Assembly (NCBI GenBank): GCA_000998135.1
Contig: LCCV01000004.1
Coordinates: forward strand, 85,681-149,680
Reading direction: 5' to 3'
Length of the DNA: 64,000 nt
From: Parcubacteria group bacterium GW2011_GWA2_42_14
Lineage (GTDB): Bacteria; Patescibacteriota; Minisyncoccia; Sungbacterales; GWA2-42-14
This document shows positions 11,678 through 54,497 of this stretch, piece after piece. The translations under genes were made by a program, and so were the position numbers. The notes under the pieces are model-generated. The model saw only the letters and a program-made list of their open reading frames with translations. It was not told where the DNA came from and searched no databases. Within the stretch, counting starts at the first letter, position 1. The number at the start of each line of letters is the position of its first letter.

Positions 11678-11739
11678 AACATAAAACTTGAAACATAAAT
11701 TTTTTATGTTTCAGGTTTCAGGTTTCAGGTTTCAAAAAG

Positions 11740-12420
11740 TTGATTTTTTTTGATAATGTATCCAAAATTTATACTCCCACATCGGCGGCGTTGAAAAACG
11801 TTACTCTTAGAATTATGCCCAAAGAATTCGTTTCCATCGTGGGGGCCTCGGGCGCCGGAAAAACCACGCTTTTAAAAATGCTCATAGCCGAAGAAAAGCC
11901 GTCGGAGGGCAGGATTTTTTTGGACGGCATTGAAATAACCGGTTTATCGTATCGGGAATTGCCCAAAGTGCGGCGCAGAATCGGCACGGTTTTTCAGGAT
12001 TATAAGCTATTGCCTCAAAAAACCTCTTTTGAAAATATTGCCTTTGCCATGGAGGCGGCCGGTTTAGCTGATGAAGAAATTAAAGAAAGCGTCCCCCAAG
12101 TTCTTGAACTTGTCGGACTTTTGGATAAATCAGACAGTTTCCCGCATGAACTTTCCGGAGGAGAAAAACAAAGAGTGGCTATTGCCCGTGCTTTGGTGAA
12201 TCGCCCGGAAGTAATTATGGCTGACGAGCCGACCGGGAATTTAGACCCCATCAACACCTGGGAAATTGTAAAACTTCTTGTTAAGATAAATGAATTGGGA
12301 ACAACCGTGATTTTGGCAACGCATAACAAGGAAATCGTTGATGACCTCGGCCGAAGGGTGGTAGCATTGGAGAACGGCCAGATTGTGATGGATGAAGAGA
12401 AAGGAAAATATGTTATTTAA
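11740..12420 (+). CDS. ftsE: cell-division ABC ATPase FtsE
   Basis: Walker A GASGAGKTT, signature [15 protein letters not shown], Walker B IMADEP. 226 aa. Followed by ftsX. Confidence 0.8.
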   Translation: MIFFDNVSKIYTPTSAALKNVTLRIMPKEFVSIVGASGAGKTTLLKMLIAEEKPSEGRIFLDGIEITGLSYRELPKVRRRIGTVFQDYKLLPQKTSFENIAFAMEAAGLADEEIKESVPQVLELVGLLDKSDSFPHELSGGEKQRVAIARALVNRPEVIMADEPTGNLDPINTWEIVKLLVKINELGTTVILATHNKEIVDDLGRRVVALENGQIVMDEEKGKYVI

Positions 12421-25626: not shown

Positions 25627-25867
25627 TATCAGATGGGACTGTTGCCGAATGTCATCCTGAACACATTCGCTTCGCTCAGTGTAAACTCCGTGAAGGATCT
25701 CGGCCACTCGACAATATCGAAAACATTGAGATTCTTCGCGGATGGATTCGATAAACTCACCACAGGGTTTATCCTGAGATTCTTCCCCTTCGCATGGCTC
25801 AGGGTCAGAATGACAACCGAAGGGCTCAGAATGACAGGAATAGAAAAGGGTCATTCGGCAACAGTCC
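25627..25867. repeat. compound nested-palindrome element (family A type with embedded gataaactcaccacagg module)
   Basis: Outer inverted repeat ggactgttgccgaatg / cattcggcaacagtcc. Internal gtcatcctgaac…gagattcttc…ctcagggtcagaatgac modules. Confidence 0.65.
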
Positions 25868-26758: not shown

Positions 26759-27176
26759 ATGGCTTATTTATTCTTTGCTATTTTTGAGCTTAATCGGTTT
26801 TCTTGATGCCGATTATATCACCATCAAGCATTATCTCGGAGTTCCTTTGACCTGCTCCATTTTTGAAGGATGCGAAAAAGTAACGACCAGCCAGTACGCG
26901 ACAGTCGGAAATATTCCGGTGGCATTGTTCGGCGCGGTTTATTATCTTTCAATTCTGGTTCTTGTGATTTTATATCTGGACACGGGAAGGGTTGGGGCAA
27001 TTCGTTTGATTTCCCGTTTCAGCGTTGCCGGATTTTTGGCCTCTCTTTGGTTTATTTATCTCCAATTATTTGTGATAGGGGCAATTTGCTTTTATTGCAT
27101 GGTTTCCGCGGTTACTTCCACAAGTATTTTTATTGTCGGCATGCGGCTGATGATAAAAGAGTATAAGAATAATTAA
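26748..27176 (+). CDS. vitamin K epoxide reductase (VKOR) family protein
   Basis: Loop Cys pair (LTCSIFEGCEK). Transmembrane CFYC active site. About 4 transmembrane segments. Start ATG at 26748 overlaps the DsbA stop. Confidence 0.7.
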   Translation: MPPKWLIYSLLFLSLIGFLDADYITIKHYLGVPLTCSIFEGCEKVTTSQYATVGNIPVALFGAVYYLSILVLVILYLDTGRVGAIRLISRFSVAGFLASLWFIYLQLFVIGAICFYCMVSAVTSTSIFIVGMRLMIKEYKNN

Positions 27177-27204: not shown

Positions 27205-27445
27205 AGTCATTGCGAGGAGTCCCGAGCGCGTCGAGGGACGACGAAGCAATCTTAATAGTCATTGTGAGGGAGCGAGACGACCGAAGCAATCCCGAGAATT
27301 ATTTATTTAAGAGATTGCTTCGTGGATGGATTCGATAAACTCACCACAGGGTTTATCCTGAGCGAAGTTGAAGGGCCCGCAATGACAAAAAGAGATTGCT
27401 TCCCGCCATGCTCCTTTCGGTTGCTCGCGGTCGCAATGACAGCGG
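27205..27445. repeat. compound palindromic element (family A type with embedded gataaactcaccacagg module)
   Basis: agtcattgcgagg…gagattgcttcgtggatggattcgataaactcaccacagggtttatcctgagcg…gcaatgac modules. Shares a 40-nt block with 25735-25775. Confidence 0.65.
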
Positions 27446-28086: not shown

Positions 28087-28878
28087 TTGGAAAAATCAAA
28101 ATTAAAAATAATTATCCTGATTGTTATTGCTGTAATCCTTTCTGGCATGTTTCTTTTTTTCCGTTTCAGCCCAACCGGAACGTCTGTTTTATGGAATTGG
28201 TCGGGCGGAGGCAGGATTTTACTGCCGCTGGTTTTGGTGTCGGCTTTGATTGACAGTGTTAACCCCTGCGCGTTTTCCATTTTGCTCCTGACCATAGCTT
28301 TCCTTTTCAGCATCGGTTCGTTAAGAGCCAGCATTTTGAAAATAGGCAGTTCCTATATTTTCGGAATTTTCAGCGCTTACATTCTCATAGGTCTTGGAAT
28401 TTTGGGAACTCTGCATATTTTCAATACTCCGCATTTCATGGGGCGTCTTGGCGCGATTCTTCTTATTATTCTTGGCATAATAAATCTTATAAACGAGTTT
28501 TTTCCGTCTTTCCCTGTAAAACTGAAAATTCCGCAGTCAGCTCACCATAAAATGGCAGAACTTGTGAATAAAAGTTCGTTGCCGGCCGCTTATTTTTTGG
28601 GAGTACTGGTGGGGCTTTGTGAATTTCCCTGCACCGGCGGGCCGTATCTTATGGTTCTCGGGCTTTTGCATGACACCAAAACCTATTTTTCCGGAGTCGG
28701 TTACCTCTTCCTCTATAATGTTATTTTTGTCCTGCCGCTGGTAATAACTCTTTTATTGGCAAGCAATAAACTGCTTTTGCAAAAAGCGCAGATTTTATAC
28801 GGCAAGGAAAAAAGATTGATGCGATTGGGAGGAGGGATAGCGATGATAATTCTTGGGGTAATTATTCTTTTATTTTGA
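28087..28878 (+). CDS. CcdA/DsbD-transmembrane-domain family protein (disulfide reductant transporter)
   Basis: Transmembrane Cys motifs DSVNPCAFSILLL and CEFPCTGGPY. About 6 transmembrane segments. Paralog at 51057-51773. Confidence 0.6.
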   Translation: MEKSKLKIIILIVIAVILSGMFLFFRFSPTGTSVLWNWSGGGRILLPLVLVSALIDSVNPCAFSILLLTIAFLFSIGSLRASILKIGSSYIFGIFSAYILIGLGILGTLHIFNTPHFMGRLGAILLIILGIINLINEFFPSFPVKLKIPQSAHHKMAELVNKSSLPAAYFLGVLVGLCEFPCTGGPYLMVLGLLHDTKTYFSGVGYLFLYNVIFVLPLVITLLLASNKLLLQKAQILYGKEKRLMRLGGGIAMIILGVIILLF

Positions 28879-40267: not shown

Positions 40268-41860
40268 ATGAATAAGATTAAATACATAATTGTTTTTATT
40301 ATCATTATTGGTGCGTGGGTTGCCTGGTATTATTTTTGGGGCAGGGAAAAACCTCTTGATTATGAAACTGTTAGCGCAAAACTCGGCAATATCAGTCAGG
40401 AAATAAATGTTACAGGAAAAATTATACCCTTGGACAAGGTGGAACTTGCTTTTGAAAAAGGCGGAAGAATAGTAAAAATAAATGCCGATGTCGGAGATAC
40501 CGTGTCCCGCGGCTGGATTCTGGCCGAACTTGATAATTCCGAACTTTTGGCAGAAATATCCCAGAAAAAATCGCAGGTTAAGGCCGAAGAAGCGCGTCTG
40601 GAAGAATTGAAAAGAGGAAGCCGTCCGGAAGAATTGAAAATATTGGAAGTAAAAGTTGAAAATGCCAAGGCCCTGCTTGAAGACGCTGAAAAAAATATGA
40701 TTGATAAAATTCAGGATTCTTATACCAAATCCGATGATGCCATAAGAAATAAAATTGACCAGCTTTACTCAAATCCCAGAACCAAATCTCCTACCCTGAC
40801 TGTTTATGACCCCGGCGCTTATCAAACCCGCCAAGAACTGGAAACCGGCAGGGTTGTTATTGAAGGTATTTTGGTAGAATGGAATTCCGAATTGGCGGGA
40901 CTCGTATCTTCTCAAGATTTGTCTCCCGCTCTTTTAAATGCCAAAACAAGAATCGGGGAAATAAATAAGTTTCTTGAAAAAATCGCGCTTTTAGTAAACG
41001 GTTTGACTCCGAGTTCTTCTCTTTCCCAGACAACTATTAATACTTATCGTTCCGATACGGCAACGGCAAGAGCCAATGTCAATACCGCGTTGGGAAATTT
41101 AACATCCGCGGATGAGAAAATGCGTTCGGCCAAATCCGCGGTGGTGCTTGCCGAAAATGAGCTTTTTTTGAAACAGGTCGGCGCTGCCGTTGAAACAATT
41201 TCTGCCAAAGAAGCGGAGTTGGAATACGCCCAGGCAAGTGTGGCAAGCGTTTTGGCACAGCTGCAAAAATTAGTTCTTCGCTCACCAATAAATGGGATTG
41301 TTTCAGGAACTTTTGCTAAAATCGGAGAAATTATCGCGGCCAATAAAGTCATTTTTTCTCTTATTTCCGACAACGAAGCTGAAGTCGAAGCGAATATTCC
41401 TGAAGTGGATATTGCCAAAATAAAAAAAGGGGATACGGCATTGATTACACTGGACGCTTACGGAGTTGATACGGAATTTGAGGCGGAACTTGGCATGATT
41501 GACCCGGCAGAAACAATTATTGAAGGCGTCGCGACTTATCGCGCGACATTTCAATTTCTTGTCCCGAGGACTTCGAGTGATCCTCAGTCGAACTCCGGAG
41601 TCGAGGGGGTGAAAAAAGACGGGCGCATTAAACCGGGCATGACCGCCAATATTAGCGTTAAGGGGCCGTCCAGAGAGAATGTTTTAGTTCTTCCACAGCG
41701 CGCCGTAATTTCTAAAAACGGAAATAGATTTGTCAGGGTTCTTAATGGCAAAGAAATCTTTGAAACGGAGATAAAAACCGGATTAAGGGGTTCGGATGGC
41801 AATGTGGAAATAACGGAAGGGTTGAAAGACGGGGACATAGTAATTTTGTTTCAAAAGTAG
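40268..41860 (+). CDS. efflux membrane fusion protein (HlyD/MacA-type periplasmic adaptor)
   Basis: N-terminal transmembrane segment. Biotinyl-lipoyl-like half-motifs (GKIIPLDKVELAF…, ITLDAYG). Long coiled-coil middle. C-terminal beta-barrel (GMTANISV). Followed by a MacB-type ATPase. Confidence 0.7.
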   Translation: MNKIKYIIVFIIIIGAWVAWYYFWGREKPLDYETVSAKLGNISQEINVTGKIIPLDKVELAFEKGGRIVKINADVGDTVSRGWILAELDNSELLAEISQKKSQVKAEEARLEELKRGSRPEELKILEVKVENAKALLEDAEKNMIDKIQDSYTKSDDAIRNKIDQLYSNPRTKSPTLTVYDPGAYQTRQELETGRVVIEGILVEWNSELAGLVSSQDLSPALLNAKTRIGEINKFLEKIALLVNGLTPSSSLSQTTINTYRSDTATARANVNTALGNLTSADEKMRSAKSAVVLAENELFLKQVGAAVETISAKEAELEYAQASVASVLAQLQKLVLRSPINGIVSGTFAKIGEIIAANKVIFSLISDNEAEVEANIPEVDIAKIKKGDTALITLDAYGVDTEFEAELGMIDPAETIIEGVATYRATFQFLVPRTSSDPQSNSGVEGVKKDGRIKPGMTANISVKGPSRENVLVLPQRAVISKNGNRFVRVLNGKEIFETEIKTGLRGSDGNVEITEGLKDGDIVILFQK

Positions 41861-41878: not shown

Positions 41879-41982
41879 GTCATTCTGAGGTAACAACCGA
41901 AGAATCTCAATCTGCGAAAATACTAATTTTTGAGATTCTTCACGGAGTTTACACTGAGCGAAGCGAATGTGTTCAGAATGAC
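41879..41982. repeat. hairpin repeat family A copy
   Basis: gtcattctgagg…gagattcttcac…gagcgaagcgaatgtgttcagaatgac. Confidence 0.65.
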
Positions 41983-42029
41983 GAAAAATAATTTTTGAAA
42001 CTTTTTAGACAGTCTTTTAGGCAACTTTT

Positions 42030-42749
42030 ATGGAATTAATAGAAATCCAGGATTTAAAAAAAATATACGGCGAAGGGGAAATGGAAACATCGGCGCTTGC
42101 CGGAATAAGTTTAAAAATAGCTAAAGGAGAATTCGTCGCGGTTATGGGGCCATCCGGCTCCGGCAAATCAACGCTTCTTCACATTCTTGGTTTTCTTGAC
42201 AGGCCCACTTCCGGCCTTTATTTTTTTGACGGCAAAAACATGCTTGATTACTCGGATGAGGAACTGGCGCGATTGAGAAATAAGAAGATGGGTTTTATAT
42301 TTCAGGCCTTTAATCTTCTTCCCCGGACATCCGTCTTGGAAAACGTAAAACTTCCGCTTATTTATTCCGATATCGCGTTAACGGAATGGAACGCGCTTGC
42401 GGAGTCGGCTATTGAGAAAGTTGGCTTAACTCACCGGATTCATCATCAGCCATCCCAGCTTTCCGGAGGAGAAAAACAAAGAGTTGCCATTGCCAGAGCT
42501 TTGGTTTTAAATCCACTGGTAATTTTCGCGGATGAGCCCACCGGCAATCTTGATTCAAAATCCGGCGGACAAGTTATGGAAGCGATTGCAAAGCTTCATG
42601 AGGACGGACATACTATTATATTGATTACACATGAGACCTATACCGCCGCCTATGCCCAAAGAATAATAGAACTTAAAGACGGCCTGATTGAAAAAGTTCG
42701 GTCTGTTTCGGAGCGTCACCGCACTTTTGACCATCAATTTATTAAATGA
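42030..42749 (+). CDS. MacB/LolD-type ABC transporter ATP-binding protein
   Basis: Walker [13 protein letters not shown]-loop. Signature [15 protein letters not shown]. Walker [13 protein letters not shown]-loop ILITHE. Confidence 0.8.
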
Positions 42750-42750
42750 T

Positions 42751-42903
42751 TTTGTTTTGCGAAGGCGTCTGCTTAATTGTCATTTGAATACTTTGAGAAA
42801 TTGGGATAATAATGGATTTCTGAAAGCGATTCGTTTCGGCACGCGAGGCGACCGAAGATATAAAAAAGAAGATATATTAAAATGTTTAAGAAAACGTATT
42901 TAA
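42751..42903 (+). CDS. small excisionase/HTH_17-like DNA-binding protein, putative (start uncertain)
   Basis: C-terminal LRNWDNNGFLKAIRFGTRGDRRYKKEDILKCLRK resembles excisionase-family HTH (…G.lpa.k.G.r.yRf..edi..wl). The ORF overlaps the ATPase 3' end. No ATG found, so a TTG start is assumed. Confidence 0.3.
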   Translation, partial: FVLRRRLLNCHLNTLRNWDNNGFLKAIRFGTRGDRRYKKEDILKCLRKRI

Positions 42904-42912
42904 CAAAAAAAC

Positions 42913-43416
42913 ATGATTCCCAAAGAGAACAACTTTGCATTTATAGACAGCCAAAATGTGTACAAAGGGACACGGCGGGATTTAGGTTGGGAATTGGACT
43001 GGGTCCGTTTTCGTGTGTATTTGAAACACAAGTACGACATCACTAACGCTTATTTGTTTATCGGCTTTATGCCGGAACATAACGACATTTATGATGAACT
43101 CCAAAAAGCAGGATTTATTTTGAAATTTAAGCCCGTATTGCCCAACGGAAAAGACGGCGTGAAAGGAAACATTGATGCTGACCTGGTATTACAAGCCATG
43201 ATTGACTATCCAAACTACGACAAAGCAGTAATTGTTTCCAGCGACGGTGATTTCTATTCACTTGCCCGCCACTTGTACGATAACAAAAAACTTTTGGCGG
43301 TTTTAAGTCCGCACCGGAAAACATGCTCGTCTCTTTTAAGAAAATCGGCAAAGGACAAAATGGTCTATATGGACAATCTAGAAAACAAGCTATCAAAAAG
43401 AAAAAGCACCGCGTAG
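42913..43416 (+). CDS. NYN/LabA-like domain protein
   Basis: FAFIDSQNVYKG…GNIDADLVLQAM…AVIVSSDGDFYSL matches the NYN (LabA) catalytic-residue pattern. Confidence 0.6.
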   Translation: MIPKENNFAFIDSQNVYKGTRRDLGWELDWVRFRVYLKHKYDITNAYLFIGFMPEHNDIYDELQKAGFILKFKPVLPNGKDGVKGNIDADLVLQAMIDYPNYDKAVIVSSDGDFYSLARHLYDNKKLLAVLSPHRKTCSSLLRKSAKDKMVYMDNLENKLSKRKSTA

Positions 43417-43614
43417 GGACGGAACCCATACGAAGTGCTTTTTCATAGGAATACTTAAAGTATAGCAAGTACTTGCCAAAAGTCAATAGTTTTATCAACA
43501 CCTCCAACAAATATCCGATAAAATCCGTATATATATAACCAAAAATATCCGATAATATGGCTAATTTATCCGGGGTTTGGTTTAACAGAAAAAATTAAAT
43601 TAAAAAGTTAAAAC

Positions 43615-44157
43615 ATGAAAGACATAGACAATTTATATTATGACGCCATGGAATTGCTTGACGACGGGCGAAGCGGAGCGAAAAAAGCGGAGAAATTACT
43701 TTTGAAAGCGGTTGCAATAGACCCGCATAGCCCGCAAACATATATTGGACTAGTTCAAATTTATGGAGTTATCAAAAATAAAAAGAAAATAGAGGAGTGC
43801 GTTAAAAAAGCTTATACTGAAACAGTCAAAAAAATTCCAGTTTGGCCGAAGACAATGTTTTGGGGCGATATGGACAATCGAGCGTATATGAGGGCTGTTC
43901 AATATCGGGCTGACCCTTATGCTGATAAAGGAGAAAAGGAGAAAGCCATAGAATTATATAGACTGCTTTTGCGGTTGAATCCGAATGACAATCAAGGCGT
44001 CAGATATACTCTTTCCGGGGTATACGCCGGTATTGGCGGTGAAAAAATAAATGAAATGTTTGACGAAGGAAACGCAAAACAAAATTGGGATAAGCTGGAA
44101 AATTTAGTAAAAGAGCAAAACACCAAACACAAATTTTGGAAAGAACCAAAATATTAG
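43615..44157 (+). CDS. hypothetical TPR-like helical protein
   Basis: Helical repeats (AEKLLLKAVAIDPHSPQTYIGL…, AIELYRLLLRLNPNDNQG). Confidence 0.4.
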   Translation: MKDIDNLYYDAMELLDDGRSGAKKAEKLLLKAVAIDPHSPQTYIGLVQIYGVIKNKKKIEECVKKAYTETVKKIPVWPKTMFWGDMDNRAYMRAVQYRADPYADKGEKEKAIELYRLLLRLNPNDNQGVRYTLSGVYAGIGGEKINEMFDEGNAKQNWDKLENLVKEQNTKHKFWKEPKY

Positions 44158-44686
44158 AATATAAACCCCATTCAGCCGAAATTCTGCAGGAATAAGTCGC
44201 GCGGCGGATTGTCAGCCGGGGGTGGAAATAGATTTGCTTTTAAATTTAAATTGCGTTATCGTTAGAATTTTGTATGACGATATTTCTAGATTTAAACTCA
44301 CAGAAAGTTCTGTGGTTTAATTTCATCATACTTTCCCTGAGTATAATTTAAGTGGTAGCGAACTTGCTGTTGCTTGGACGGCCCATATTTCTGAACAAAT
44401 GGGATATAATCCTTGGGTTATAATTCATCCTGATGAAAAAAAACTCATAGAATTTTGCACAAACAAGAGGTTGACTTTTACTGTTTAAGCGATCGAAAAA
44501 ATGGTAATATGCCACAGAATGTGCAAGAAATTATCAGTAGTGTAATTTCCAACAAAAACGGCGTAGAAACTCAGATAATTTCAAGTAGTGATTATTCGTA
44601 ATTTTCTACCTCAATTTAGCTAAAACCAAGAAACCAGCTCTATGTAGTTGGTTTTTTGAGGTAAAATATGTGATAATAGAATAACT

Positions 44687-44932
44687 ATGCCCTCTTTAAA
44701 CTGGATAGGAAAAGAGAAAATTGTGAATCACGATAAGGATGTGCCGTTTCGGCTGATGCGAAAGAATAAGAAATACTCGCTTGGGGAAAGCGAGAATTTA
44801 ATTTTGGAGGGGGATAATTTGGGGGCATTAAAGGCATTGGTGCCTTTTTATTATGGAAAAATAAAATGTATTTATATTGATCCACAGAAGAATAGTACTG
44901 ATAGCGTTATTAATAAAGTTTCTAAATTATAA
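44687..44932 (+). pseudogene. N-terminal remnant of an N6-adenine/N4-cytosine DNA methyltransferase (Type III Mod / Type II beta-class like)
   Basis: LNWIGKEKIV…NLILEGDNLGALKALVPFYYGKIKCIYIDPQKNS corresponds to the conserved N-terminus of Mod methylases (…NLLIxGDNLxALKxL…IDLIYIDPPYNTG). The DPPY motif is degenerated to DPQK and the ORF stops after 81 aa. Confidence 0.5.
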
Positions 44933-45462
44933 AACCCAATCCCTCGAACAGAAAAAGAAACTAAAAGATGGTAATACAGCGAAGAAACGGTGTCAGGTAC
45001 TCTTTTTGACTCCACAAAAAACCAATAAAACTATATTACACCACGCCAACAACATACTAACAAACTGGAGTTTGTTGGTATGTTGTGAAGTAAAAAAATT
45101 AACAAAATAAATTTATGGAAAAATAAGCCGAAGTCCGCGGCTGCGAAAAACAAATTGACCAGCTCGTCTATGGTTTGATAAACTCACCACAGGTAAACTC
45201 TACGGCCTCCCGCCTTCAATAAACTTTTGGCGGGCAGGCACCCCGGAGGAAATTAAAATTGTTGAAAATGAAAATAGATAATTTTAATCAGCAAAAATTA
45301 TGACCGGAAGCAATCAATATTTTTATGAAGATATTGAGACTGCCCATATAAAGTTCTTGCGCTTATTTTGAGTATAGCATATAATTTAAACCAAAGGTAC
45401 CCAAATATGGGTACCAATATGGCACAAACCATCAATATATCTATGGCGAATGTCATTTAATC

Positions 45463-46062
45463 ATGGAAAAATACTATATTTTAGACTTAATGAGATCCAA
45501 AAAGACTGTCTTCACTTTTAAAGACCTTATTTTGTTTTGGGGAAAATCTGACGTGAATTTTGTAAAGAAAAAAATTTACCGCTACGTGAAGGCGGGCAAA
45601 ATGAATTCTATCCGTAGAGGCATTTACTCCAAGGACAAGGACTATAATAAATACGAACTGGCTACAAAAATATATACACCCTCATATGTCAGCCTGGAGA
45701 CCGCGCTAGGCGCGTCCGGAGTTACTTTCCAGCTGTATGGTCAGATTTTTGTCGTATCATACACCACAAAGGAAATCGAGTGCGACGGACAGAAATATTC
45801 TTACAAAAAAATCAAAGATATCATTCTCACCAATCAAATCGGCATAGAGTCGAGGGAAAATTACAGCATTGCTTCGCCCGAACGCGCCTTTTTAGATGTT
45901 ATTTATCTTAACAAAGATTATCATTTTGATAATCTATCAGCTTTGAATTGGGAAAAAGTACGCGAAATTTTACCCATTTACGGCGGCAACAAACGAATGG
46001 CAAAAATGGTAAAAATGTACCACAAGGCGTTTTCCGCCGAAGTCACCAGTCCTTCGCAGTAG
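45463..46062 (+). CDS. AbiEi-family antitoxin/transcriptional regulator
   Basis: N-terminal AbiEi_4-like pattern (FTFKDLILFWGKSDVNFVKKKIYRYVKAGKMNSIRRGIYS). Positioned immediately upstream of the AbiEii gene. Confidence 0.55.
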   Translation: MEKYYILDLMRSKKTVFTFKDLILFWGKSDVNFVKKKIYRYVKAGKMNSIRRGIYSKDKDYNKYELATKIYTPSYVSLETALGASGVTFQLYGQIFVVSYTTKEIECDGQKYSYKKIKDIILTNQIGIESRENYSIASPERAFLDVIYLNKDYHFDNLSALNWEKVREILPIYGGNKRMAKMVKMYHKAFSAEVTSPSQ

Positions 46063-46127
46063 CTCTGCTACGGAGAATGGAGATCCGCCTCCGGCGGAAA
46101 GATTGCCAATTAGAAAATAATAACCGC

Positions 46128-46835
46128 ATGACTCTTAACACCGCAAAACATAAAAATATTCTTATAAAAATCCTCAAGGATATCTACACTGATCCTGCCA
46201 TCAGTCCTCTTTTGGGATTTAAGGGCGGTACAGCCGCTATATTTTTCTATAACCTTGACCGCTTTTCGATGGACTTGGATTTTGATTTGCTCAATTCAGA
46301 AAAGGAATACTTTGTGTTTGAACAAGTAAAAGCGGCCCTTGAAAATTACGGAAAATTAAAGCAGGTAAGAAAGAAAAGATTCAATCTTTTTTATATTCTT
46401 TCTTATGACGACAAAGACATTAATGCTCAAAATATTAAGGTGGAAATCAACCGCCGGGAATTTGGCTCAAAATATTCGGTGGAATCATTCCTCGGTATTT
46501 CTATGCAGGTAATGGTCAAAGAAGATATGGCCGCTCACAAACTTTGCGCCATGTATGAGCGAATCGGCAAAACCAACCGCGATATTTATGACGTACATTT
46601 TTTTCTTTCTCACGACTGGCCGGTTAATAAAAAGATTGTTGAGGACCGCATGGGAGTATCGTATGCGGAGTTTTTGAAAAAATGCATTGAGACAATGGAA
46701 AAGTTTGATGATAGCAACATTCTCTCCGGTATGGGTGAATTACTGTTGTCCGGGAAGCAAAAAGCGTGGGTAAAAGCAAAACTTAAGTCAGAAGTATTGT
46801 TCTTTCTGAAACTTGCTTTGGAAAAAGAAAAATAA
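46128..46835 (+). CDS. AbiEii/AbiGii-family nucleotidyltransferase toxin
   Basis: LLGFKGGTAAIFFYNLDRFSMDLDFDL matches the AbiEii signature (GGTAL…RFSEDIDF). Start ATG at 46128 chosen (MTLNTAKHK). Confidence 0.7.
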   Translation: MTLNTAKHKNILIKILKDIYTDPAISPLLGFKGGTAAIFFYNLDRFSMDLDFDLLNSEKEYFVFEQVKAALENYGKLKQVRKKRFNLFYILSYDDKDINAQNIKVEINRREFGSKYSVESFLGISMQVMVKEDMAAHKLCAMYERIGKTNRDIYDVHFFLSHDWPVNKKIVEDRMGVSYAEFLKKCIETMEKFDDSNILSGMGELLLSGKQKAWVKAKLKSEVLFFLKLALEKEK

Positions 46836-46853
46836 ACTCGCATACACTTATAT

Positions 46854-47987
46854 ATGTCAGAAGACACCGATAAAATTTTTGGGAATACGGAAGCAGAAGA
46901 ACTTTTGGGGAAAGCGGCTGATTTGTTTTACGAAAATAAATACGAGGCGGCCGAAACCGTGCTCAAGGAAGTTATCGAAAAATTCCCTGAATTTTTTCCC
47001 GGGTGGGCCGCCTCCGGAGATTTTTATTTGAATGTCGGCCGGCCGGATAAGGCTCTGGCTCCATTGCGAAAAGCGGTTCGGCTTTCATTCTACGAAGGCA
47101 TTGGCCATTATCTTTTGGGCGCGGCGTATATTAAAGTCGCTCGATTTCATCTGGCGGAACGGGAACTGGAAGCGGCCGAGAAACTGCTCGAGGAAAAAGC
47201 CGACGTAAAAGCGCATTTGGGCCGGGCTAAATTTATGCTGGGAAAAATTGAAGAGGGCCGGAAGCTAATTGCCGAAGCCGTGAATGATGACCCGGACAAT
47301 TCTTTTATCCGCTGCGATTTAGCTCAAACTTACGTAGCTGAAAAAAATTTTACCGAGGCCTTGCGCTTGGCCGAAAATATTTCTTCTGACGACCCTTTCT
47401 TTAAAAAAAATGCCGCTTTTATCCGCAAACTTAAGGAGGACTTTGACCGATTAACTCCGGAAGAACAAGAAAAAAACCGAGAAGAATCGCTTAGCGGTAA
47501 AGCAGGGCAGAAGATGAGGATTGAAATGCTTTTGGGGCTGGCGGACGCGGGCGAAGGACTAACCAAAGAAGATATGGCCGAAATCACCGAGGAAATGCGC
47601 CTTTTCGGACTTACCGGACAAATAACTATGATGAAGGATGAAAATGACCCCAAAAGCAAAGATGTTTTGGAGTTTATAAAAATGCATGAGGAGTTGGGAT
47701 TGGGAATGGGAAATAAGGTTAAAAAATTTTCTTCTGCCGAGATTCGCGAATTAACGGATGCGCTTTTGGAAGATACGCCCGTTTTGGAGAAGAAAAAAAC
47801 GCTGGTTAAGCTCGCGAGTTCCGGCCATAAAAAAGCGCTGGGAACGCTTAAACGTTTTTGCGAAAATCCGCGGCCCGGGGAACTTAAATTTTGGGCTGAA
47901 CTTGCCTATGACGAATGCCGCCTTATCAATTCCGGCGTTTCCGAAACAGAACCCCCGGTTATTTTCCGAAATTTGGAAGAAAATTAG
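46854..47987 (+). CDS. TPR-repeat protein
   Basis: Several TPR-like units (AETVLKEVIEKFPEFFPGWAASGDFYLNVG…, GHYLLGAAYIKVARFHLAEREL…). Confidence 0.5.
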   Translation: MSEDTDKIFGNTEAEELLGKAADLFYENKYEAAETVLKEVIEKFPEFFPGWAASGDFYLNVGRPDKALAPLRKAVRLSFYEGIGHYLLGAAYIKVARFHLAERELEAAEKLLEEKADVKAHLGRAKFMLGKIEEGRKLIAEAVNDDPDNSFIRCDLAQTYVAEKNFTEALRLAENISSDDPFFKKNAAFIRKLKEDFDRLTPEEQEKNREESLSGKAGQKMRIEMLLGLADAGEGLTKEDMAEITEEMRLFGLTGQITMMKDENDPKSKDVLEFIKMHEELGLGMGNKVKKFSSAEIRELTDALLEDTPVLEKKKTLVKLASSGHKKALGTLKRFCENPRPGELKFWAELAYDECRLINSGVSETEPPVIFRNLEEN

Positions 47988-48120
47988 GAGAATGGTTCGA
48001 CAAACTTACCGCACGTTAGGAAAATAACATACCAGCAATCTTGCTTGTCCGCCTTTGGAGGGAGAATGTTGGTATGTTGCAGACCGCGTTAACGGCGGGC
48101 GGGCAAAACTTAAAAAATCT

Positions 48121-49374
48121 ATGAAATTATTTTATTCATTCAAAACGGCGGCTGGGGGGTTGGGCAGAAATAAATCCCGAAGCGTTTTAACGCTTTTAGG
48201 AATTGTTATCGGCATTGCCTCAATTATAACCGTAATGTCTGTTGGAGAAGGCGCTAAAAATTTGATTTTGGGGCAAATTCAGGGGTTGGGTTCCAAAACC
48301 ATAGCTGTTATTCCTGGACGTCAACCGCGGGGTCCTACTGATATCGCCGCTCTTCTTCTTGATTCGTTAAAGGAGAAGGACTTGAATAGTTTGCGTAAAC
48401 GGGAGAATGTGCCCTATGCGGCGGACGTTATGCCAGTAGTATTTGGACCAATACGGCTTGCCTATGAAGGGGAAACGTATCAGACGACCATGCTTGGCGG
48501 CGGGAGCACCGATACCAATGATATTCTCGGAAAAGTATTTGACGTATATCCTGAAAAAGGTCGTTTCTTTAGCGTTGAGGAGGTAAATTCAAAAGCCAGC
48601 GTTGCGACTATAGGTGATAAAATCCGCAGAGAACTTTTTGGTTTTACAGATCCTTTAGGTAAAATACTCAAAGTTAATGGGCTAAATTTTCGAGTCGTGG
48701 GTGTATTGGCTCCTAAGGGGCAGGTTTCCTTTTTTAATTTCGACGATACGCTTTTAGTGCCGTATACTACTGCCCAGCAGTATATTTTAGGACGTAAACA
48801 CTTTGATCGAATAATCGTAGTCGCAAAATCCGACGAAACCGTAGAGACAACGGTAGGAGATATCGCGGTTACTTTGCGCATAAACCACGGAATTACGGAC
48901 CCGTCTAAAGACGATTTTTTCATCCAGACCCAGGCTGATCTTGCTGATCGCTTAGGAACAGTGACTAGTATTTTGACAATACTTCTTACTTCAGTTGCGG
49001 GTATATCGCTTTTGGTCGGAGGCATTGGTATTATGAATATAATGCTCGTATCGGTTACCGAGAGGACGCGTGAAATCGGCTTGAGAAAAGCCATCGGTGC
49101 TACTAACCGAAATATATTAACACAGTTTCTTCTGGAAGCGGTCATGCTGACTATCGGAGGAGGGGTTATCGGAATAATTTTGGGACTTTCTTTATCGTTT
49201 TCGGCTTCGTTCATACTGGGGCAGTATCTTGGCGTTGATTGGGGTTTTACCATTCCTTTGAACGCGATAATTATCGGGCTCGGCCTTTCGGCGTTTGTCG
49301 GAATAGTTTTCGGAACTTATCCGGCCCGCCAAGCTTCATTGAAGAGTCCGATTGAAGCTTTGCGGTATGAATAA
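48121..49374 (+). CDS. MacB/FtsX-type ABC transporter permease
   Basis: N-terminal transmembrane segment. Large periplasmic MacB_PCD-like domain. C-terminal FtsX 3-transmembrane bundle (LLVGGIGIMNIMLVSVTERTREIGLRKAIGAT). Start ATG at 48121 (MKLFYSF) preferred. Confidence 0.75.
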   Translation: MKLFYSFKTAAGGLGRNKSRSVLTLLGIVIGIASIITVMSVGEGAKNLILGQIQGLGSKTIAVIPGRQPRGPTDIAALLLDSLKEKDLNSLRKRENVPYAADVMPVVFGPIRLAYEGETYQTTMLGGGSTDTNDILGKVFDVYPEKGRFFSVEEVNSKASVATIGDKIRRELFGFTDPLGKILKVNGLNFRVVGVLAPKGQVSFFNFDDTLLVPYTTAQQYILGRKHFDRIIVVAKSDETVETTVGDIAVTLRINHGITDPSKDDFFIQTQADLADRLGTVTSILTILLTSVAGISLLVGGIGIMNIMLVSVTERTREIGLRKAIGATNRNILTQFLLEAVMLTIGGGVIGIILGLSLSFSASFILGQYLGVDWGFTIPLNAIIIGLGLSAFVGIVFGTYPARQASLKSPIEALRYE

Positions 49375-49400: not shown

Positions 49401-49483
49401 TTCTTCGAGATTGTCGATGTTTCAACAAGCTCACCACAGGGAAGTTATAATTGTAAGGTTCTCGACAAGCTCGAACAATAAAT
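49401..49483. repeat. modular repeat family H (ttcttcgag…caagctcaccacagg…tgtaaggttctcgacaagctcgaacaataaa)
   Basis: Shares a 30-nt 3' block with 60721-60788. Contains the cgacaagctc core common to families C and D. Confidence 0.6.
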
Positions 49484-50163: not shown

Positions 50164-50973
50164 ATGAAACCAAATAAATTACAACAGGTCGCGCTGGCGG
50201 TTTTTTCGCTAGCCGGTACCGCCCTAATGGGCTATCTTCTCTCGCTCAAGTTCTTTTCTAAAGCCTCGTCGTTTTGCGAGCTGGGCGAAGGTTTTTCGTG
50301 CGACCTTGTCAACCAGAGTATCTACTCGGAAATTTTCGGAATTCCCGTATCACTCCTGGGCCTGCTTTATTTTCTCGGGGTGCTGGTTGCGGTTTTGTGG
50401 CGGTATAATGAGACTACGCTAAAATCCATTCTCTTTTTTTCCATCGTATTTTTAGGGCCGTCGCTTTACCTAAGTTATATTGAATTTTTTGTGTTAAAGA
50501 GTATCTGCGTTTTTTGTGAAGCATCAAAAGTTTTGATACTTGCCGTAATTGCCGTATCCGGATACGCACTAAGAGGGAGGACCGGCAGGCAGTTCGTGAT
50601 ATCGGCTATGGCAGTTGGACTTGTTTTTGCCGGAGTCACTTATTTTATTCATGCTAACGCCGGACCCGGGGAAAAATATAACGCTCTGGCTCAGTGCCTT
50701 GATGAGAAAGGGTACAAAGTGTACGGCTCCATAACTTGCGCGTCGTGCGCGAGACAAAGAGCCATGTTCGGCGATGCGTATAAATTCATAGAGGAGATTG
50801 AGTGCGATCCGCGAAATCCGCATAATGTCGTGGAACTCTGTATTGCCAAAAACATAAAAAAGACACCTACATGGATTCAGGAGGATGAAGCCGGAGGCGA
50901 GCTTTACCGGTTTGAGGCAGGCATAGTGTCTCTGGAGAATCTCTCCCGCGTGTCAGGGTGTTCACTGGAGTAA
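50164..50973 (+). CDS. VKOR-domain / thioredoxin-like-domain fusion protein
   Basis: N-terminal VKOR features (loop Cys pair FCELGEGFSC, transmembrane CVFC). C-terminal Trx-like domain with CASC. Confidence 0.6.
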   Translation: MKPNKLQQVALAVFSLAGTALMGYLLSLKFFSKASSFCELGEGFSCDLVNQSIYSEIFGIPVSLLGLLYFLGVLVAVLWRYNETTLKSILFFSIVFLGPSLYLSYIEFFVLKSICVFCEASKVLILAVIAVSGYALRGRTGRQFVISAMAVGLVFAGVTYFIHANAGPGEKYNALAQCLDEKGYKVYGSITCASCARQRAMFGDAYKFIEEIECDPRNPHNVVELCIAKNIKKTPTWIQEDEAGGELYRFEAGIVSLENLSRVSGCSLE

Positions 50974-51056: not shown

Positions 51057-51773
51057 ATGGCTATAGATAATTTAACCATCCCCATTATCGTCAGCGCGGC
51101 ACTGGTTGACAGCATCAACCCCTGCGTTTTAGGCGTGCTTATTTTTTTGCTGGCATTCATGACTAGCGCTTTCCGCAGCCGGACGCGGATGCTTCTCGGA
51201 GGGCTTTTCTATAGTTTGGTGGTATACGTTACTTATCTTGCGCTCGGTTTAGGAATTTTGAGGATAACCGTGTCCATCGGGGTTTCCACCGCTTTCTACT
51301 GGGTGGCCGCCCTGGTGGCTATTGCGGCCGGGCTTTTTGAAATAAAAGATTTTTTCTGGTACGGAAAGGGGTTTTCTTTGCAGATGATTCCCGGAGCGTC
51401 AGAACGCATCAAGTATTACACCTCGAGAATCGCGGCAATTCAGGAAAATCGTCCCGGCTTGAGCTTGCTTTTTATCGGTCTCTTGGGGGTTTTTGTCGTT
51501 TTGGTGGAATTGCCCTGCACCGGAGCGCCGTATTTTGCGGTTTTGGCCCTGTTGGCCAAAGGAGCGTATGCAGATGCGGTTCCCTTTTTGCTTCTGTATA
51601 ATTTTATTTTTGTGCTTCCGTTGCTCGCGGTGGTCGCGGTCGCTTATTTTGGAACCTCATCCGAACAAATGGAGGAATGGCGTAAGCGCCATCGGGGTCT
51701 TATGCGATTGGTTATAGGAACTTTTCTCATTGCTCTGGGTGTTTTCATGCTTTACTCGATTCAAGGGTTTTAA
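51057..51773 (+). CDS. CcdA/DsbD-transmembrane-domain family protein
   Basis: DSINPCVLGVLIF and ELPCTGAPYF Cys motifs. 6 transmembrane segments. Paralog of 28087-28878. Confidence 0.6.
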   Translation: MAIDNLTIPIIVSAALVDSINPCVLGVLIFLLAFMTSAFRSRTRMLLGGLFYSLVVYVTYLALGLGILRITVSIGVSTAFYWVAALVAIAAGLFEIKDFFWYGKGFSLQMIPGASERIKYYTSRIAAIQENRPGLSLLFIGLLGVFVVLVELPCTGAPYFAVLALLAKGAYADAVPFLLLYNFIFVLPLLAVVAVAYFGTSSEQMEEWRKRHRGLMRLVIGTFLIALGVFMLYSIQGF

Positions 51774-51878: not shown

Positions 51879-54497
51879 TTGATTACCCCAAGGTTAAATG
51901 CCAAATGGCACGAACTCCCGATTAAGGATTTGCTGCAGGAATTCGGGTCCAATTTAGAAACCGGACTGGCGGATGACGAGGTCGGGCGAAGGCGGGCAGA
52001 GTTCGGACCGAACGAACTTCCGAAAGGAAAAAAGCTCCACTGGTGGGAGTTTTTTTTCCGACAGTTCAAAAATCCACTTATTTTCATTTTGCTCGCGGCC
52101 GGAGCGATTACTTGGTGGCTTGCCGAGTATCTGGATACCATTGTCATATTTCTCGCGGTGCTGGTGAATGTTGCTATCGGATTTTGGCAGGAATTCCGGT
52201 CCAACCGCATTTTTGAAAAACTTCAGGCGATTGTGGCGGTGCGTTCGCGCGTGCGCAGAGACGGTAAAATGCGGGAGATCAACGCGAAAGACCTTGTTCC
52301 CGGCGACATAATTCTCCTTTACGCGGGAGTGAAGGTTCCGGCTGATGCCCGGATTCTTGAAGCGCGGCGATTGGAAGTGAATGAGGCGCTTCTTACCGGA
52401 GAATCTCTTCCGGTCAAGAAGACGGTTTTGGATCTTTCCGGTAGAACGGCGCTCGCCGATAGAAAAAATATGGTTCATGCGGGAACTGTGGTGGAGCAGG
52501 GTGAGTGTATTGCTCTGGTGGTAGCAATCGGAGAGAATACGGAACTCGGCGAGATCGCTCGCCTTACCGCCTCGGTGGAGGAGGAGTCCACCCCGCTTCA
52601 GGAGCGTTTGGCGCGCCTCGGTAAAATCATCGCGGGTTTTGTTCTGGCCGCGGCGTTTTTCGTAATCCTCGTCGGAGTTTGGGAGGGAAGAGCATTTGTG
52701 GAGATGTTTACGGTAGGAGTCGCGGTGGCGGTTGCCGCGATCCCCGAAGGGCTTCCTGCCGCACTCTCGGTGGTGCTCGCCGTAGCTTCGCAAAGGATTT
52801 TTGGACGAAAGGGACTGGTTAAAACTCTCATTGGTGCCGAAACTCTCGGCTCCACAACCGTAATTTGTACGGATAAGACCGGAACTCTTACCGAAGGAAT
52901 CATGCAGGTGGAGAAGCTCGTTGAAGCCAAGGACCCTAAACGTAGCGCTTTAGCACTCGCACTCGCGAACGAAGCGGCCGTCATGGACCGGGGAGATATC
53001 AGGGGAGAAGCAACCGATTGCGCGAAGCTTAAATATTTTTTGGAAGAGGGCGGGGGTAATCTTGACGAAGCGCTCAAGGAATACCCGCGCCTGGCCATAC
53101 TCCCGTTTGACGCGGACGAAAAATATATCGCGTCGTTCCACGGAGGAAAAGAGCGCCTGATAAACCTATTTGTCACGGGCGCTCCGGAAATTCTTATTGA
53201 ACGTTCGACTCTGTCGGAGCGGGAAAAAGGGCGAATGCGGGAGATAGTGGATTCTTTTGCCGCCCGGGGATACCGGATGATTGCTACGGCCGAGCGCGGT
53301 ATTGTGCGCAGTGCCTCGCGGATAGATCCGGATGACATCGCTGGGCTTCGTCGGGAGGTAGGAGGGCTCTTGCTTTCCGGACTTGCGGCAGTCCGCGATC
53401 CGGCGCGCCCCGACGTAAAAGAATCTTTGAAAATCACGCGCCAAGCGGGCATTCGCGTCCTTATGGTAACCGGGGACCATAAGCTTACGGCGCGCGCCAT
53501 CGGCCAGGATTTGGGATTCAGTGCTGATCCGTCGGCTCTTATTGACGGCCCGGAATTGGATCAATTGTCGGATGAGGAATTCGCCCGACGGATCCGGAGC
53601 GTGGAAATATTTTCGCGCGCTTCCCCTAGGCACAAGATGCGGATTATAAACGTCTTAAGGATAGAGGGACATGTGACGGCCATGACCGGGGACGGCGTAA
53701 ACGACGCTCCGGCTCTTAAGGCGGCGGATGTCGGGGTCTCGGTCGGCGACGGAGCGGACGTTACCAAAGAGGCGGCGGACCTTGTGCTTTTGGATGACTC
53801 GTTCTCGACCATTACCTCGGCCATCCGCGAAGGCAGGATCGCTTTTGATAACATGCGCAAAGTCGCCGTTTTCCTGCTGATGGGTTCCTTTACTGAATTT
53901 ATTCTCGTCGTAACGTCGCTCGTCTTGGGAATCCCGCTTCCCGTAACCGCGGTGCAGATTCTCTGGGCGAATATTATTGAGGACGGGTTTCCTAATTTTG
54001 CTTTGGCTTTTGAGCCCGGCGAGAAGGATATCATGGAGCGCCGGCCATTTAAACGTAAAGAGCCGATACTTGATCGGCTCGGAATGGCTTTTGTATTTAT
54101 TCAGGGGATCCTTACCGACCTTATTTTGGTGGGAGTATTCCTCTGGCTCTTCTATAATTCTTCCTACACCCTCGAACATCTCCGGACTATTATACTTGCC
54201 GCTCTTACTACTGATGCGCTTCTTTTGGTCTTTGTCCTTAAAAATCTGCGCGAGCCGCTGTATAAAATCGAGTTTTTCAGCAATTACTATCTTCTTTTGG
54301 CTGTTATTTTGGGATTTACCGCGATGTTTGCGGCAATTTACGCTCCGCCTCTTCAGTGGCTTCTCGGCACCGTTCCTTTAAGCGCGGGGGATATAGCGCT
54401 CGTCCTCGGCATGGGTCTTTTGGAGGTGGGGCTCGCCGAGGGTATCAAATGGTGGTTCAGACGCGGTGGATATTTTAGGGTGCAAACAGCTTCTTAA
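51879..54497 (+). CDS. cation-transporting P-type ATPase (type IIA-like, Ca2+/Mg2+-ATPase family)
   Basis: N-terminal cation-ATPase-N-like region. TGES. ICTDKTGTLTEG. MTGDGVNDAPALKAADVGVSVG. 10 transmembrane layout. 872 aa. TTG start at 51879. Confidence 0.8.
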   Translation: MITPRLNAKWHELPIKDLLQEFGSNLETGLADDEVGRRRAEFGPNELPKGKKLHWWEFFFRQFKNPLIFILLAAGAITWWLAEYLDTIVIFLAVLVNVAIGFWQEFRSNRIFEKLQAIVAVRSRVRRDGKMREINAKDLVPGDIILLYAGVKVPADARILEARRLEVNEALLTGESLPVKKTVLDLSGRTALADRKNMVHAGTVVEQGECIALVVAIGENTELGEIARLTASVEEESTPLQERLARLGKIIAGFVLAAAFFVILVGVWEGRAFVEMFTVGVAVAVAAIPEGLPAALSVVLAVASQRIFGRKGLVKTLIGAETLGSTTVICTDKTGTLTEGIMQVEKLVEAKDPKRSALALALANEAAVMDRGDIRGEATDCAKLKYFLEEGGGNLDEALKEYPRLAILPFDADEKYIASFHGGKERLINLFVTGAPEILIERSTLSEREKGRMREIVDSFAARGYRMIATAERGIVRSASRIDPDDIAGLRREVGGLLLSGLAAVRDPARPDVKESLKITRQAGIRVLMVTGDHKLTARAIGQDLGFSADPSALIDGPELDQLSDEEFARRIRSVEIFSRASPRHKMRIINVLRIEGHVTAMTGDGVNDAPALKAADVGVSVGDGADVTKEAADLVLLDDSFSTITSAIREGRIAFDNMRKVAVFLLMGSFTEFILVVTSLVLGIPLPVTAVQILWANIIEDGFPNFALAFEPGEKDIMERRPFKRKEPILDRLGMAFVFIQGILTDLILVGVFLWLFYNSSYTLEHLRTIILAALTTDALLLVFVLKNLREPLYKIEFFSNYYLLLAVILGFTAMFAAIYAPPLQWLLGTVPLSAGDIALVLGMGLLEVGLAEGIKWWFRRGGYFRVQTAS

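Follow-up and report, generated by a model that had tools for sequence, protein, structure and literature searches.

A small, decayed defence and toxin-antitoxin islet between the ATPase and permease genes of a MacB-type pump in Candidatus Sungbacteria

Why should the ATPase and permease genes of one efflux pump lie 5371 bp (~5.4 kb) apart, and what are the genes that separate them? This question is raised by a 64,000-nt stretch of the genome of Parcubacteria bacterium GW2011_GWA2_42_14 (hereafter the window; coordinates given without a locus name refer to it), which carries a MacB-type pump with other genes between two of its subunit genes. Patescibacteria exchange genes frequently and genomic islands have been documented in them (PMC12455944). 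AbiE and restriction-modification systems belong to the commonest defence families of groundwater bacteria, and defence density in the Candidate Phyla Radiation (CPR) is high (PMC12259885). We conclude, with a probability of about 0.8, that the 5.37 kb is a small site of accretion that holds selfish and defence genes but no recombinase, built by several acquisitions and deletions and not by one insertion.

The ATPase-permease junction in the window and in relatives

A sequence-only reading of the window had described a membrane fusion protein gene and an ATPase gene, followed by an insertion after which the permease resumes at 48121. These labels were borne out by profile searches (Pfam, PADLOC and NCBIfam with curated cut-offs, Rfam for RNAs, and relatives in the PDB). 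By Pfam, NCBIfam and full-length alignment, all three pump components (adaptor, ABC ATPase and MacB_PCD/FtsX permease) are present and intact:

40268-41860, plus strand: membrane fusion (periplasmic adaptor) protein, intact; HlyD_3 3.5e-14, HlyD_D23, full-length alignment to relatives
42030-42749, plus strand: MacB-type ABC ATPase, intact; ABC_tran 8.5e-33
42750-42760, plus strand: spacer of 11 nt common to the window and a sister species; blastn homology to L210 ends at 42760
48121-49374, plus strand: MacB-type permease (MacB_PCD and FtsX), intact; Pfam 7.1e-42 and 2.6e-19

The adaptor also reached 143 bits on NCBIfam TIGR01730 (RND_mfp), for which the cut-off is 94.9. Over residues 1-239, the ATPase is 59-72% identical to those of relatives and 88% identical to that of the sister species. 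Residues 1-417 of the permease align to relatives, and its ATG lies exactly at 48121.

For comparison, one genome per species was scanned with the ATPase, and all window proteins were mapped onto the 80 loci returned. The ATPase gene directly follows the membrane fusion protein gene in all 52 Patescibacteria loci with an ATPase 59-72% identical to that of the window, and the permease gene begins ~0-160 bp past the ATPase in nearly all of them. No NYN, TPR or AbiE gene was found within 10 kb in these 52 loci. The window departs from this one-operon contiguity, its ATPase and permease genes being 5371 bp apart as against ~0-160 bp in about 50 relatives. Since the two genes are contiguous in about 50 Patescibacteria loci, the gap is derived; the claim of an insertion, which an ancestral gene order in relatives would have contradicted, was thereby upheld.

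That the split reflects an assembly or binning chimera has a negligible probability. The source is indeed metagenome-assembled, and in the contigs L004 and L009 there is sharp divergence, confined to their ends, within abiEi and abiEii, so that AbiE variants do confuse assemblers; this divergence points to other AbiE variants in the same communities. However, the identical arrangement was found, with both junctions spanned and at least 98.8% identity, in ten contigs of up to 135-160 kb obtained from different samples and with different assemblers (metagenome-assembled genomes (MAGs) at NCBI, and ENA). The split is therefore not an assembly artefact. The groundwater Candidatus Sungbacteria MAG GCA_001820775.1 carries the same locus on contig MHQY01000014.1.

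The sister species (L210-L214; membrane fusion protein 80% and ATPase 88% identical) also has an occupied junction. Homology to the window stops 11 nt past the ATPase stop, placing the left breakpoint of the variable region after 42760 when the window and L210 are set side by side, and resumes only at the first TPR gene (43589-44157). Where the window has its NYN segment and its Mod/AbiE segment, the sister species carries a split RadC gene, a Bro-N fragment and a Bro-N gene; no Bro-N relic was detected in the window by tblastx against the sister island. The first TPR gene, homologous from 26 nt before the ATG to the stop, is the sole islet module common to both species at the junction (89% DNA and 88% amino acid identity). 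Since the junction of the sister species is occupied and shares this gene, it was already occupied before the species split and its cargo has turned over since. At the same junction, three other Patescibacteria lineages independently carry unrelated genes:

L035 1287-2315: Fic/DOC gene
L063 10714-11106: PemK/MazF-like toxin gene
L053 6852-7226: 23S_rRNA_IVP gene

These comparisons also bear on the possibility that the intervening genes are ancestral, or partners of the pump, and were lost in other lineages. Genes past the ATPase in the sister species, including the homologue of the first TPR gene, would fit such a history, as would the co-orientation of all the genes with the operon. It is nevertheless very improbable, given that some 50 diverse loci of Patescibacteria have the permease directly past the ATPase, that other lineages hold unrelated selfish genes at this spot, and that the content includes pseudogene relics and a toxin-antitoxin pair.

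Two observations on the upstream side of the pump are recorded here separately. The spacer between the membrane fusion protein and ATPase genes is 169 nt long, compared with ~0-60 nt in most relatives. A nested inverted repeat at 41880-41993 (GTCATTCTGAG...GAAGAATCTCAA / TTGAGATTCTTC...TTCAGAATGAC) resembles a small palindromic repeat element.

Content and probable origin of the islet

From 42750 to 48120 the order is a truncated helix-turn-helix (HTH) relic, an NYN gene, a TPR-like gene, a Mod relic, the AbiEi/AbiEii pair and a second TPR gene. All genes are on the plus strand, in the direction of the pump operon:

42761-42903, plus strand: MerR/excisionase-like HTH relic, 5'-truncated, ~48 codons, first helix missing
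42908-43486, plus strand: NYN module, consisting of an NYN/LabA-like open reading frame (ORF) without a promoter, a 3' hairpin and a convergent promoter
43589-44157 (ORF 43615-44157), plus strand: first TPR-like gene; TPR_14 27.4 bits against 23.5, other TPR models below their cut-offs
44158-44686, no strand: AT-rich stretch with no ORF; GC 0.344
44687-44932, plus strand: N-terminal relic of a Type III Mod methyltransferase, 81 codons; PADLOC MTase_III 4.3e-29, positions 1-74 of 542
45049-45086, no strand: palindrome with 18-nt arms, 94% complementary
45143-45283, plus strand: C-terminal tail relic of a Type IIG restriction-methylase (IDQLVY / KLYGL / TPEEIKIVEN)
45356-46836, plus strand: AbiE module, consisting of a promoter region with a palindrome, abiEi and abiEii
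45396-45415: perfect palindrome GGTACCCAAATATGGGTACC, 48 nt before the abiEi ATG and conserved in L200
45463-46062, plus strand: abiEi; PADLOC 1.4e-56, profile positions 5-182 of 186
46128-46835, plus strand: abiEii; Pfam PF08843 56.1 bits against 22.5, PADLOC 1.6e-70, positions 2-223 of 231
46854-47987, plus strand: second TPR gene, 377 amino acids, with an N-terminal TPR part (multiple TPR Pfam families) and an uncharacterised C-terminal half
48026-48079, no strand: palindrome repeated with a larger loop, in the spacer that separates the permease from the second TPR gene

The ORFs and coordinates first proposed for this segment agree with the list, with all ORFs on the plus strand as described and nearly all labels backed by profiles; repeat borders and coding remnants at 44250-44640, proposed at the same time, did not survive the analysis (see below). 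Both TPR labels, before the Mod relic and after AbiEii, correspond to Pfam TPR matches, and the LabA/NYN label to a Pfam NYN match above threshold (PF01936, 59.1 bits against 24.2; PDB 2qip, 6.9e-10). The AT-richness noted for the islet was also found: GC is 0.34-0.40 over 42761-46836, below the 0.43-0.44 of the flanking pump genes and the 0.423 of the full window. The second TPR gene, with a GC of 0.459, is unlike this AT-rich remainder.

Judged from sequence, AbiE is the sole intact known system of the islet. Its assignment had been made subject to profile thresholds: AbiEii exceeds the Pfam gathering score, and both proteins match their PADLOC profiles over nearly the full length. AbiEi lies below the NCBIfam equivalog cut-off (27.8 against 150 bits) and has no Pfam match. 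AbiEii has the PDB relatives 4o8s and 4ok0 at ~1e-10, and its translation carries GGTAAIFFYNLDRFSMDLDFD / KGGTAAIFFYNLDRFSMDLDFD (GGT...DLD), which we take to be the catalytic motif of nucleotidyltransferases (G-[GS] ... D-x-D). abiEi is located upstream of abiEii on the same strand, 65 nt separating its end from the abiEii ATG. By homology, the pair would act as a type IV toxin-antitoxin or abortive-infection system, in which AbiEii, a GTP-binding nucleotidyltransferase toxin, would arrest growth and the AbiEi antitoxin would repress the operon at the putative palindromic operator 45396-45415. Phage infection or loss of the locus would then free the AbiEii toxin.

Decay has left 74 of 542 profile positions of Mod, the tail alone of the Type IIG enzyme and an HTH domain without its first helix. 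The HTH relic scored 22.9 bits against 21.6 on MerR_1 and 25.3 against 27 on HTH_17 (profile positions 9-50 of 51), and its matches to HspR, to the N-terminus of IS607 TnpA (E = 6e-4) and to excisionase (E = 5e-3) all fell below the NCBIfam cut-offs. Since the match begins at position 9 of 51 and the sole in-frame start past the ATPase stop is a TTG at 42757, we regard it as a 5'-truncated relic. It had been labelled a small excisionase/HTH ORF; the HTH is real though marginal, MerR_1 being just above its cut-off, while the excisionase model is not reached. An IS607-family insertion sequence was rejected as a candidate, the fragment of ~48 codons standing alone and transpos_IS607 giving 19.4 bits against 110.

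The Mod relic matches MTase_III at positions 1-74 only, in keeping with the truncated N-terminus described earlier. It breaks inside motif IV, where the DPPY motif reads IDPQKNS followed by a stop, and thus falls short of a full-length Type III Mod with DPPY and a target-recognition domain. Neither an ORF nor a relic of a Res helicase-nuclease was found in 44933-45355 or elsewhere in the islet. For the Type IIG tail, a spliced 35-residue peptide aligns with the final ~30 positions in each of three REase_MTase_IIG profiles of PADLOC (best 8e-6); of the full fused nuclease-methylase-specificity polypeptide ~30 C-terminal residues remain, into which a 23-nt copy of the dispersed AAACTCACCACAGG motif and a 30-nt GC hairpin have been inserted. 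Spliced peptides from 44933-45110 matched nothing in Pfam or PADLOC apart from this tail. As for the degraded coding remnants proposed at 44250-44640, the stretch 44158-44686 has no long ORF, its spliced peptides have no Pfam or PADLOC match, and tblastx gave no match to the sister island. A restriction endonuclease remnant at 44250-44640 was dropped as unsupported, Pfam and PADLOC being silent.

Several of these modules recur elsewhere in the absence of the others. The AbiE DNA is 79% identical to that of L200, a complete Patescibacteria genome, over exactly 45356-46836; this stretch opens with the promoter and palindrome and closes with the stop codon of abiEii, and in L200 the pair lies between NlpC/P60 and polA. 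The 90%-identity cluster of AbiEi includes Sungbacteria, Peregrinibacteria and Adlerbacteria. DNA homology of the NYN module to other CPR copies (75-82%) is confined to 42908-43464/43510, and these copies lie after dnaX, between yceG and mnmA, before nusA or in the S10 ribosomal operon. An unrelated CPR island (L204) holds a 50-codon fragment that reproduces the first 135 nt of the Mod relic at 88% identity. Within the islet, the edges of the modules fall on start and stop codons, and 18 nt separate the abiEii stop from the start of the second TPR gene. The occurrence of the NYN and AbiE modules alone elsewhere with sharp limits, together with a sister species sharing only the first TPR gene, indicates a mosaic and not one element.

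One could still suppose that a single integrative element, IS607-like or excisionase-bearing, brought the whole 5.4 kb, lost its recombinase and decayed in place. All genes are co-oriented, 42761-46836 is uniformly AT-richer than the flanks, and the HTH relic at the left edge is weakly similar to the IS607 TnpA N-terminus and to excisionase (E-values as above). We consider this unlikely. Those HTH matches are all below curated cut-offs, NYN and AbiE modules stand alone with sharp homology limits in other genomes, the sister species has only the first TPR gene in common at the junction, and the second TPR gene deviates in both GC and distribution. No convincing flanking direct repeats, terminal repeats or target-site duplication emerged from a repeat search. 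No recombinase family, integrase or transposase, was recognised among the genes called within 10 kb on either side, and no tRNA gene is nearer than 28 kb. Scans of IMG/VR with AbiEii, NYN and both TPR proteins gave no matches, leaving a phage origin without evidence.

The accretion of separate modules is thus the explanation that we retain. The sequence-only reading had seen a decayed defence islet lodged in a transporter operon: the insertion is derived and the AbiE genes and restriction-modification relics are real, but the notion of one decayed element gives way to a mosaic, in which only AbiE and these relics, and not the NYN and TPR genes, are recognisable as defence parts. Under this explanation, the DNA would have come by uptake followed by illegitimate or short-homology recombination. 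The inserts would have persisted, the inter-cistronic spacer tolerating co-oriented inserts that do not abolish transcription, and the AbiE pair, possibly with the NYN module, would be addictive and resist loss. The permease would now be expressed by read-through of the co-oriented islet or from an internal promoter.

Several points weigh against this explanation. No empty site was seen in any close relative: in the nearest one sampled the junction is already occupied, and the membrane fusion protein of the next has an identity of only ~50%, so that the order and number of events are inferred and not reconstructed. A permease-based metagenome scan, one search pattern of which was generic, returned only relatives at most 57% identical, with no closer relative and no empty site, and for the sister species the right-hand junction could not be recovered. 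The promoter scan, relevant to permease and AbiE expression, found 23 promoters against 21.9 expected from shuffles, hence no enrichment. In assembly L003, abiEi has an 8-bp deletion in a poly-A run (window equivalent 45564-45571), which reflects either an error of sequencing or the onset of decay. The second TPR gene is absent from the pump loci of all relatives, is a singleton cluster at 90% identity and is part of a small family, the full-length homologues in which are 65, 44, 41% identical and below; given its host-like GC and vertical-looking divergence, it may have been native and relocated, and not acquired as cargo. Finally, the spread of the NYN gene is old, given its strongly diverged synonymous sites, and may be partly vertical. 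It has 7609 homologues at E <= 1e-10, the best of them 75-95% identical and from many CPR lineages, whereas identity of the membrane fusion protein falls to ~50% after one 82% match and that of the host gene VIT1 is 45%. At third codon positions, NYN copies are only 0.50-0.56 identical. The high protein identity therefore results from strong purifying selection and not from recent transfer, and a very recent horizontal transfer of the NYN gene was rejected.

Two repeats of the islet were also followed. A ~40-nt palindrome with the stem TGTTGGTATGTTG is common to ~45050 and ~48030 (4 matches against 1.06 expected) and is a candidate terminator, protein site or recombination site. It is also present just 3' of the 65%-identical homologue of the second TPR gene in another organism (L215 1921-1967), with 85% identity to the 45049-45086 copy. 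The dispersed intergenic motif AAACTCACCACAGG (GATAAACTCACCACAGGG) gave 4 matches against 0.13 expected, one copy being inserted in the Type IIG tail relic and one lying just past the permease gene:

25753-25769: GATAAACTCACCACAGGG copy
27337-27353: GATAAACTCACCACAGGG copy
45180-45196: GATAAACTCACCACAGGG copy
49427-49443: GATAAACTCACCACAGGG copy

Modules of the type CTCACCACAGG had been taken to border the island at 45175 and 47990; there is no match near 47990 and the motif does not flank the island. An integron cassette array was considered and rejected. The core consensus of attC sites is RYYYAAC / GTTRRRY; the hairpins at 43400-43444, 45049-45086 and 48026-48079 have no attC cores by inspection, and no integrase is nearby.

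The unrelated island L204 (1-12153) is itself a larger CPR defence and toxin-antitoxin island, with RadC, Phd/ParE, distant AbiEi/AbiEii and an SDH protease. Its Mod N-terminal fragment (95% identity over 45 amino acids) lies beside DpnI, and it carries two NYN genes.

The NYN gene and its predicted antisense RNA

Downstream of the NYN ORF, the module comprises a hairpin and an opposing promoter, from which a short RNA is predicted:

42913-43416, plus strand: NYN ORF, 167 amino acids; Pfam NYN 9.2e-16
43400-43444: 3' hairpin of the NYN gene, with the stop codon inside
43459-43464 (-10) and 43481-43486 (-35), minus strand: convergent promoter
43453->43387, minus strand: predicted antisense small RNA of ~67 nt, made up of an 18-bp hairpin and then a U-run

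The NYN fold is best known from RNases, and the protein sequence contains the acidic motifs FIDSQN, DADL and SSDGDF, presumably catalytic. When folded on the plus strand, the 3' hairpin has a z of -5.1, and among 7 sequences 5 of its 18 pairs show compensatory changes. In 823 kb searched with a covariance model of this hairpin, all matches lay next to NYN genes. On the opposite strand, a sigma-70-like promoter was found at the same offset in 8/8 distinct NYN copies (26-100% amino acid identity). Its -10 ends ~42 nt past the NYN stop (27-49 nt in two divergent copies), and the sequence of its spacer is not conserved among copies. No conserved sense promoter for the NYN gene was detected among the copies compared. 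The predicted RNA would be complementary to the 3' untranslated region of the NYN gene and to the final ~30 nt of its ORF.

At the gathering and E-value thresholds of Rfam, no known RNA family was found in the islet and none for the NYN hairpin, and no description of an NYN-plus-antisense element was found in the literature. A tblastn search with the NYN protein gave no match in phages, and plasmid matches were at most 30% identical.

It is possible, though we would not call it probable, that the NYN module is an undescribed CPR-wide type I-like toxin-antitoxin or selfish module, in which a nuclease-fold gene paired with a ~67-nt antisense RNA colonises operon spacers, including that of the S10 operon; the islet may then have begun with, or been stabilised by, such a module. 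The antisense RNA expected of a type I system is predicted here from a promoter in 8/8 copies and a covarying hairpin with a U-run. The small hydrophobic toxin peptide of the classical systems is not seen, the NYN product being a 167-residue soluble nuclease-fold protein. If this proposal is true, it would provide a testable candidate RNA-antitoxin system with thousands of homologues, in a group almost without experimental genetics.

The hairpin and convergent promoter accompany every copy examined (window 42908-43486, L172, L175, L177, L180, L190 and L204). In Vogelbacteria and related contigs (L190-L199, ~3344-4580), the NYN module is located between rplB and rpsS, on the opposite strand, and opens a 1.2-kb gap in the otherwise tightly packed S10 operon.

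Neighbouring genes and comparison with known systems

Elsewhere in the window, a P-type cation ATPase gene (51879-54497) has a GC of 0.55-0.59 over 52200-54000, against 0.42 for the window, and may be a foreign acquisition. A VKOR-like and CcdA/DsbD-like pair at 26766-27113 and 28222-28869 is 32-33% identical to the genes at 50164-50973 and 51057-51773; this divergent pair sits 23 kb upstream of the pump-adjacent one. A second ABC ATPase (39% identity) is encoded at 11737-12384.

If accretion is the correct explanation, the locus would be a clean small example of how streamlined CPR genomes gain and lose defence and addiction genes without recognisable recombinases, as compact modules at codon boundaries between co-transcribed genes, with one junction reused across lineages and cargo turning over between sister species. 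It also calls for caution in annotation: a 'missing' transporter subunit in a CPR MAG may sit several kb downstream.

The pump has the same three intact components as the MacAB-type tripartite ABC efflux pumps (type VII ABC). Its ATPase and permease are encoded by separate genes, as is the norm in CPR relatives, although here these are 5.37 kb apart.

The prototypes of the AbiE type IV system are those of Lactococcus and Streptococcus agalactiae. The islet resembles them in its co-directional abiEi-abiEii pair; the palindrome in its promoter region, a candidate operator, is conserved in a second genome. In contrast to the prototypes, the two genes are separated by a 65-nt gap and do not overlap, AbiEi has no Pfam or NCBIfam equivalog match, and the host belongs to the CPR.

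Type I toxin-antitoxin systems with convergent antisense RNAs overlapping the 3' end include txpA/RatA and bsrG/SR4 of Bacillus subtilis, and SymE/SymR is a non-peptide case. As in txpA/RatA and bsrG/SR4, the convergent promoter and terminator hairpin of the NYN module predict a short RNA that would pair with the 3' end of the NYN mRNA. The putative toxin would differ from theirs, being a 167-residue NYN/PIN-like protein and not a small membrane peptide, and the sense promoter is not conserved. Free-standing homing-endonuclease genes between conserved genes, such as seg and mob of T4-like phages, offer another comparison: the NYN module is likewise a compact nuclease-fold gene without a promoter amid conserved co-transcribed genes, including those of the S10 operon. 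Its insertion sites, however, vary among genomes, and there is no sign of DNA cleavage or homing.

As a whole, the islet belongs to a familiar class of genome islands: it is small and decayed, and its cargo is of the defence and toxin-antitoxin type. Like defence islands and hotspots of variable cargo, it combines conserved flanks with a turnover of defence, toxin-antitoxin and relic cargo, and has restriction-modification relics beside an Abi system. What is unusual is its site between two transporter subunits, the lack of a recombinase and a mosaic structure with codon-level boundaries. Unlike such islands and hotspots, it measures only 5.4 kb, is set within the operon of a single transporter, between the genes for two of its subunits, has neither an integrase or transposase nor a tRNA, and is composed of modules whose limits fall at codon boundaries.

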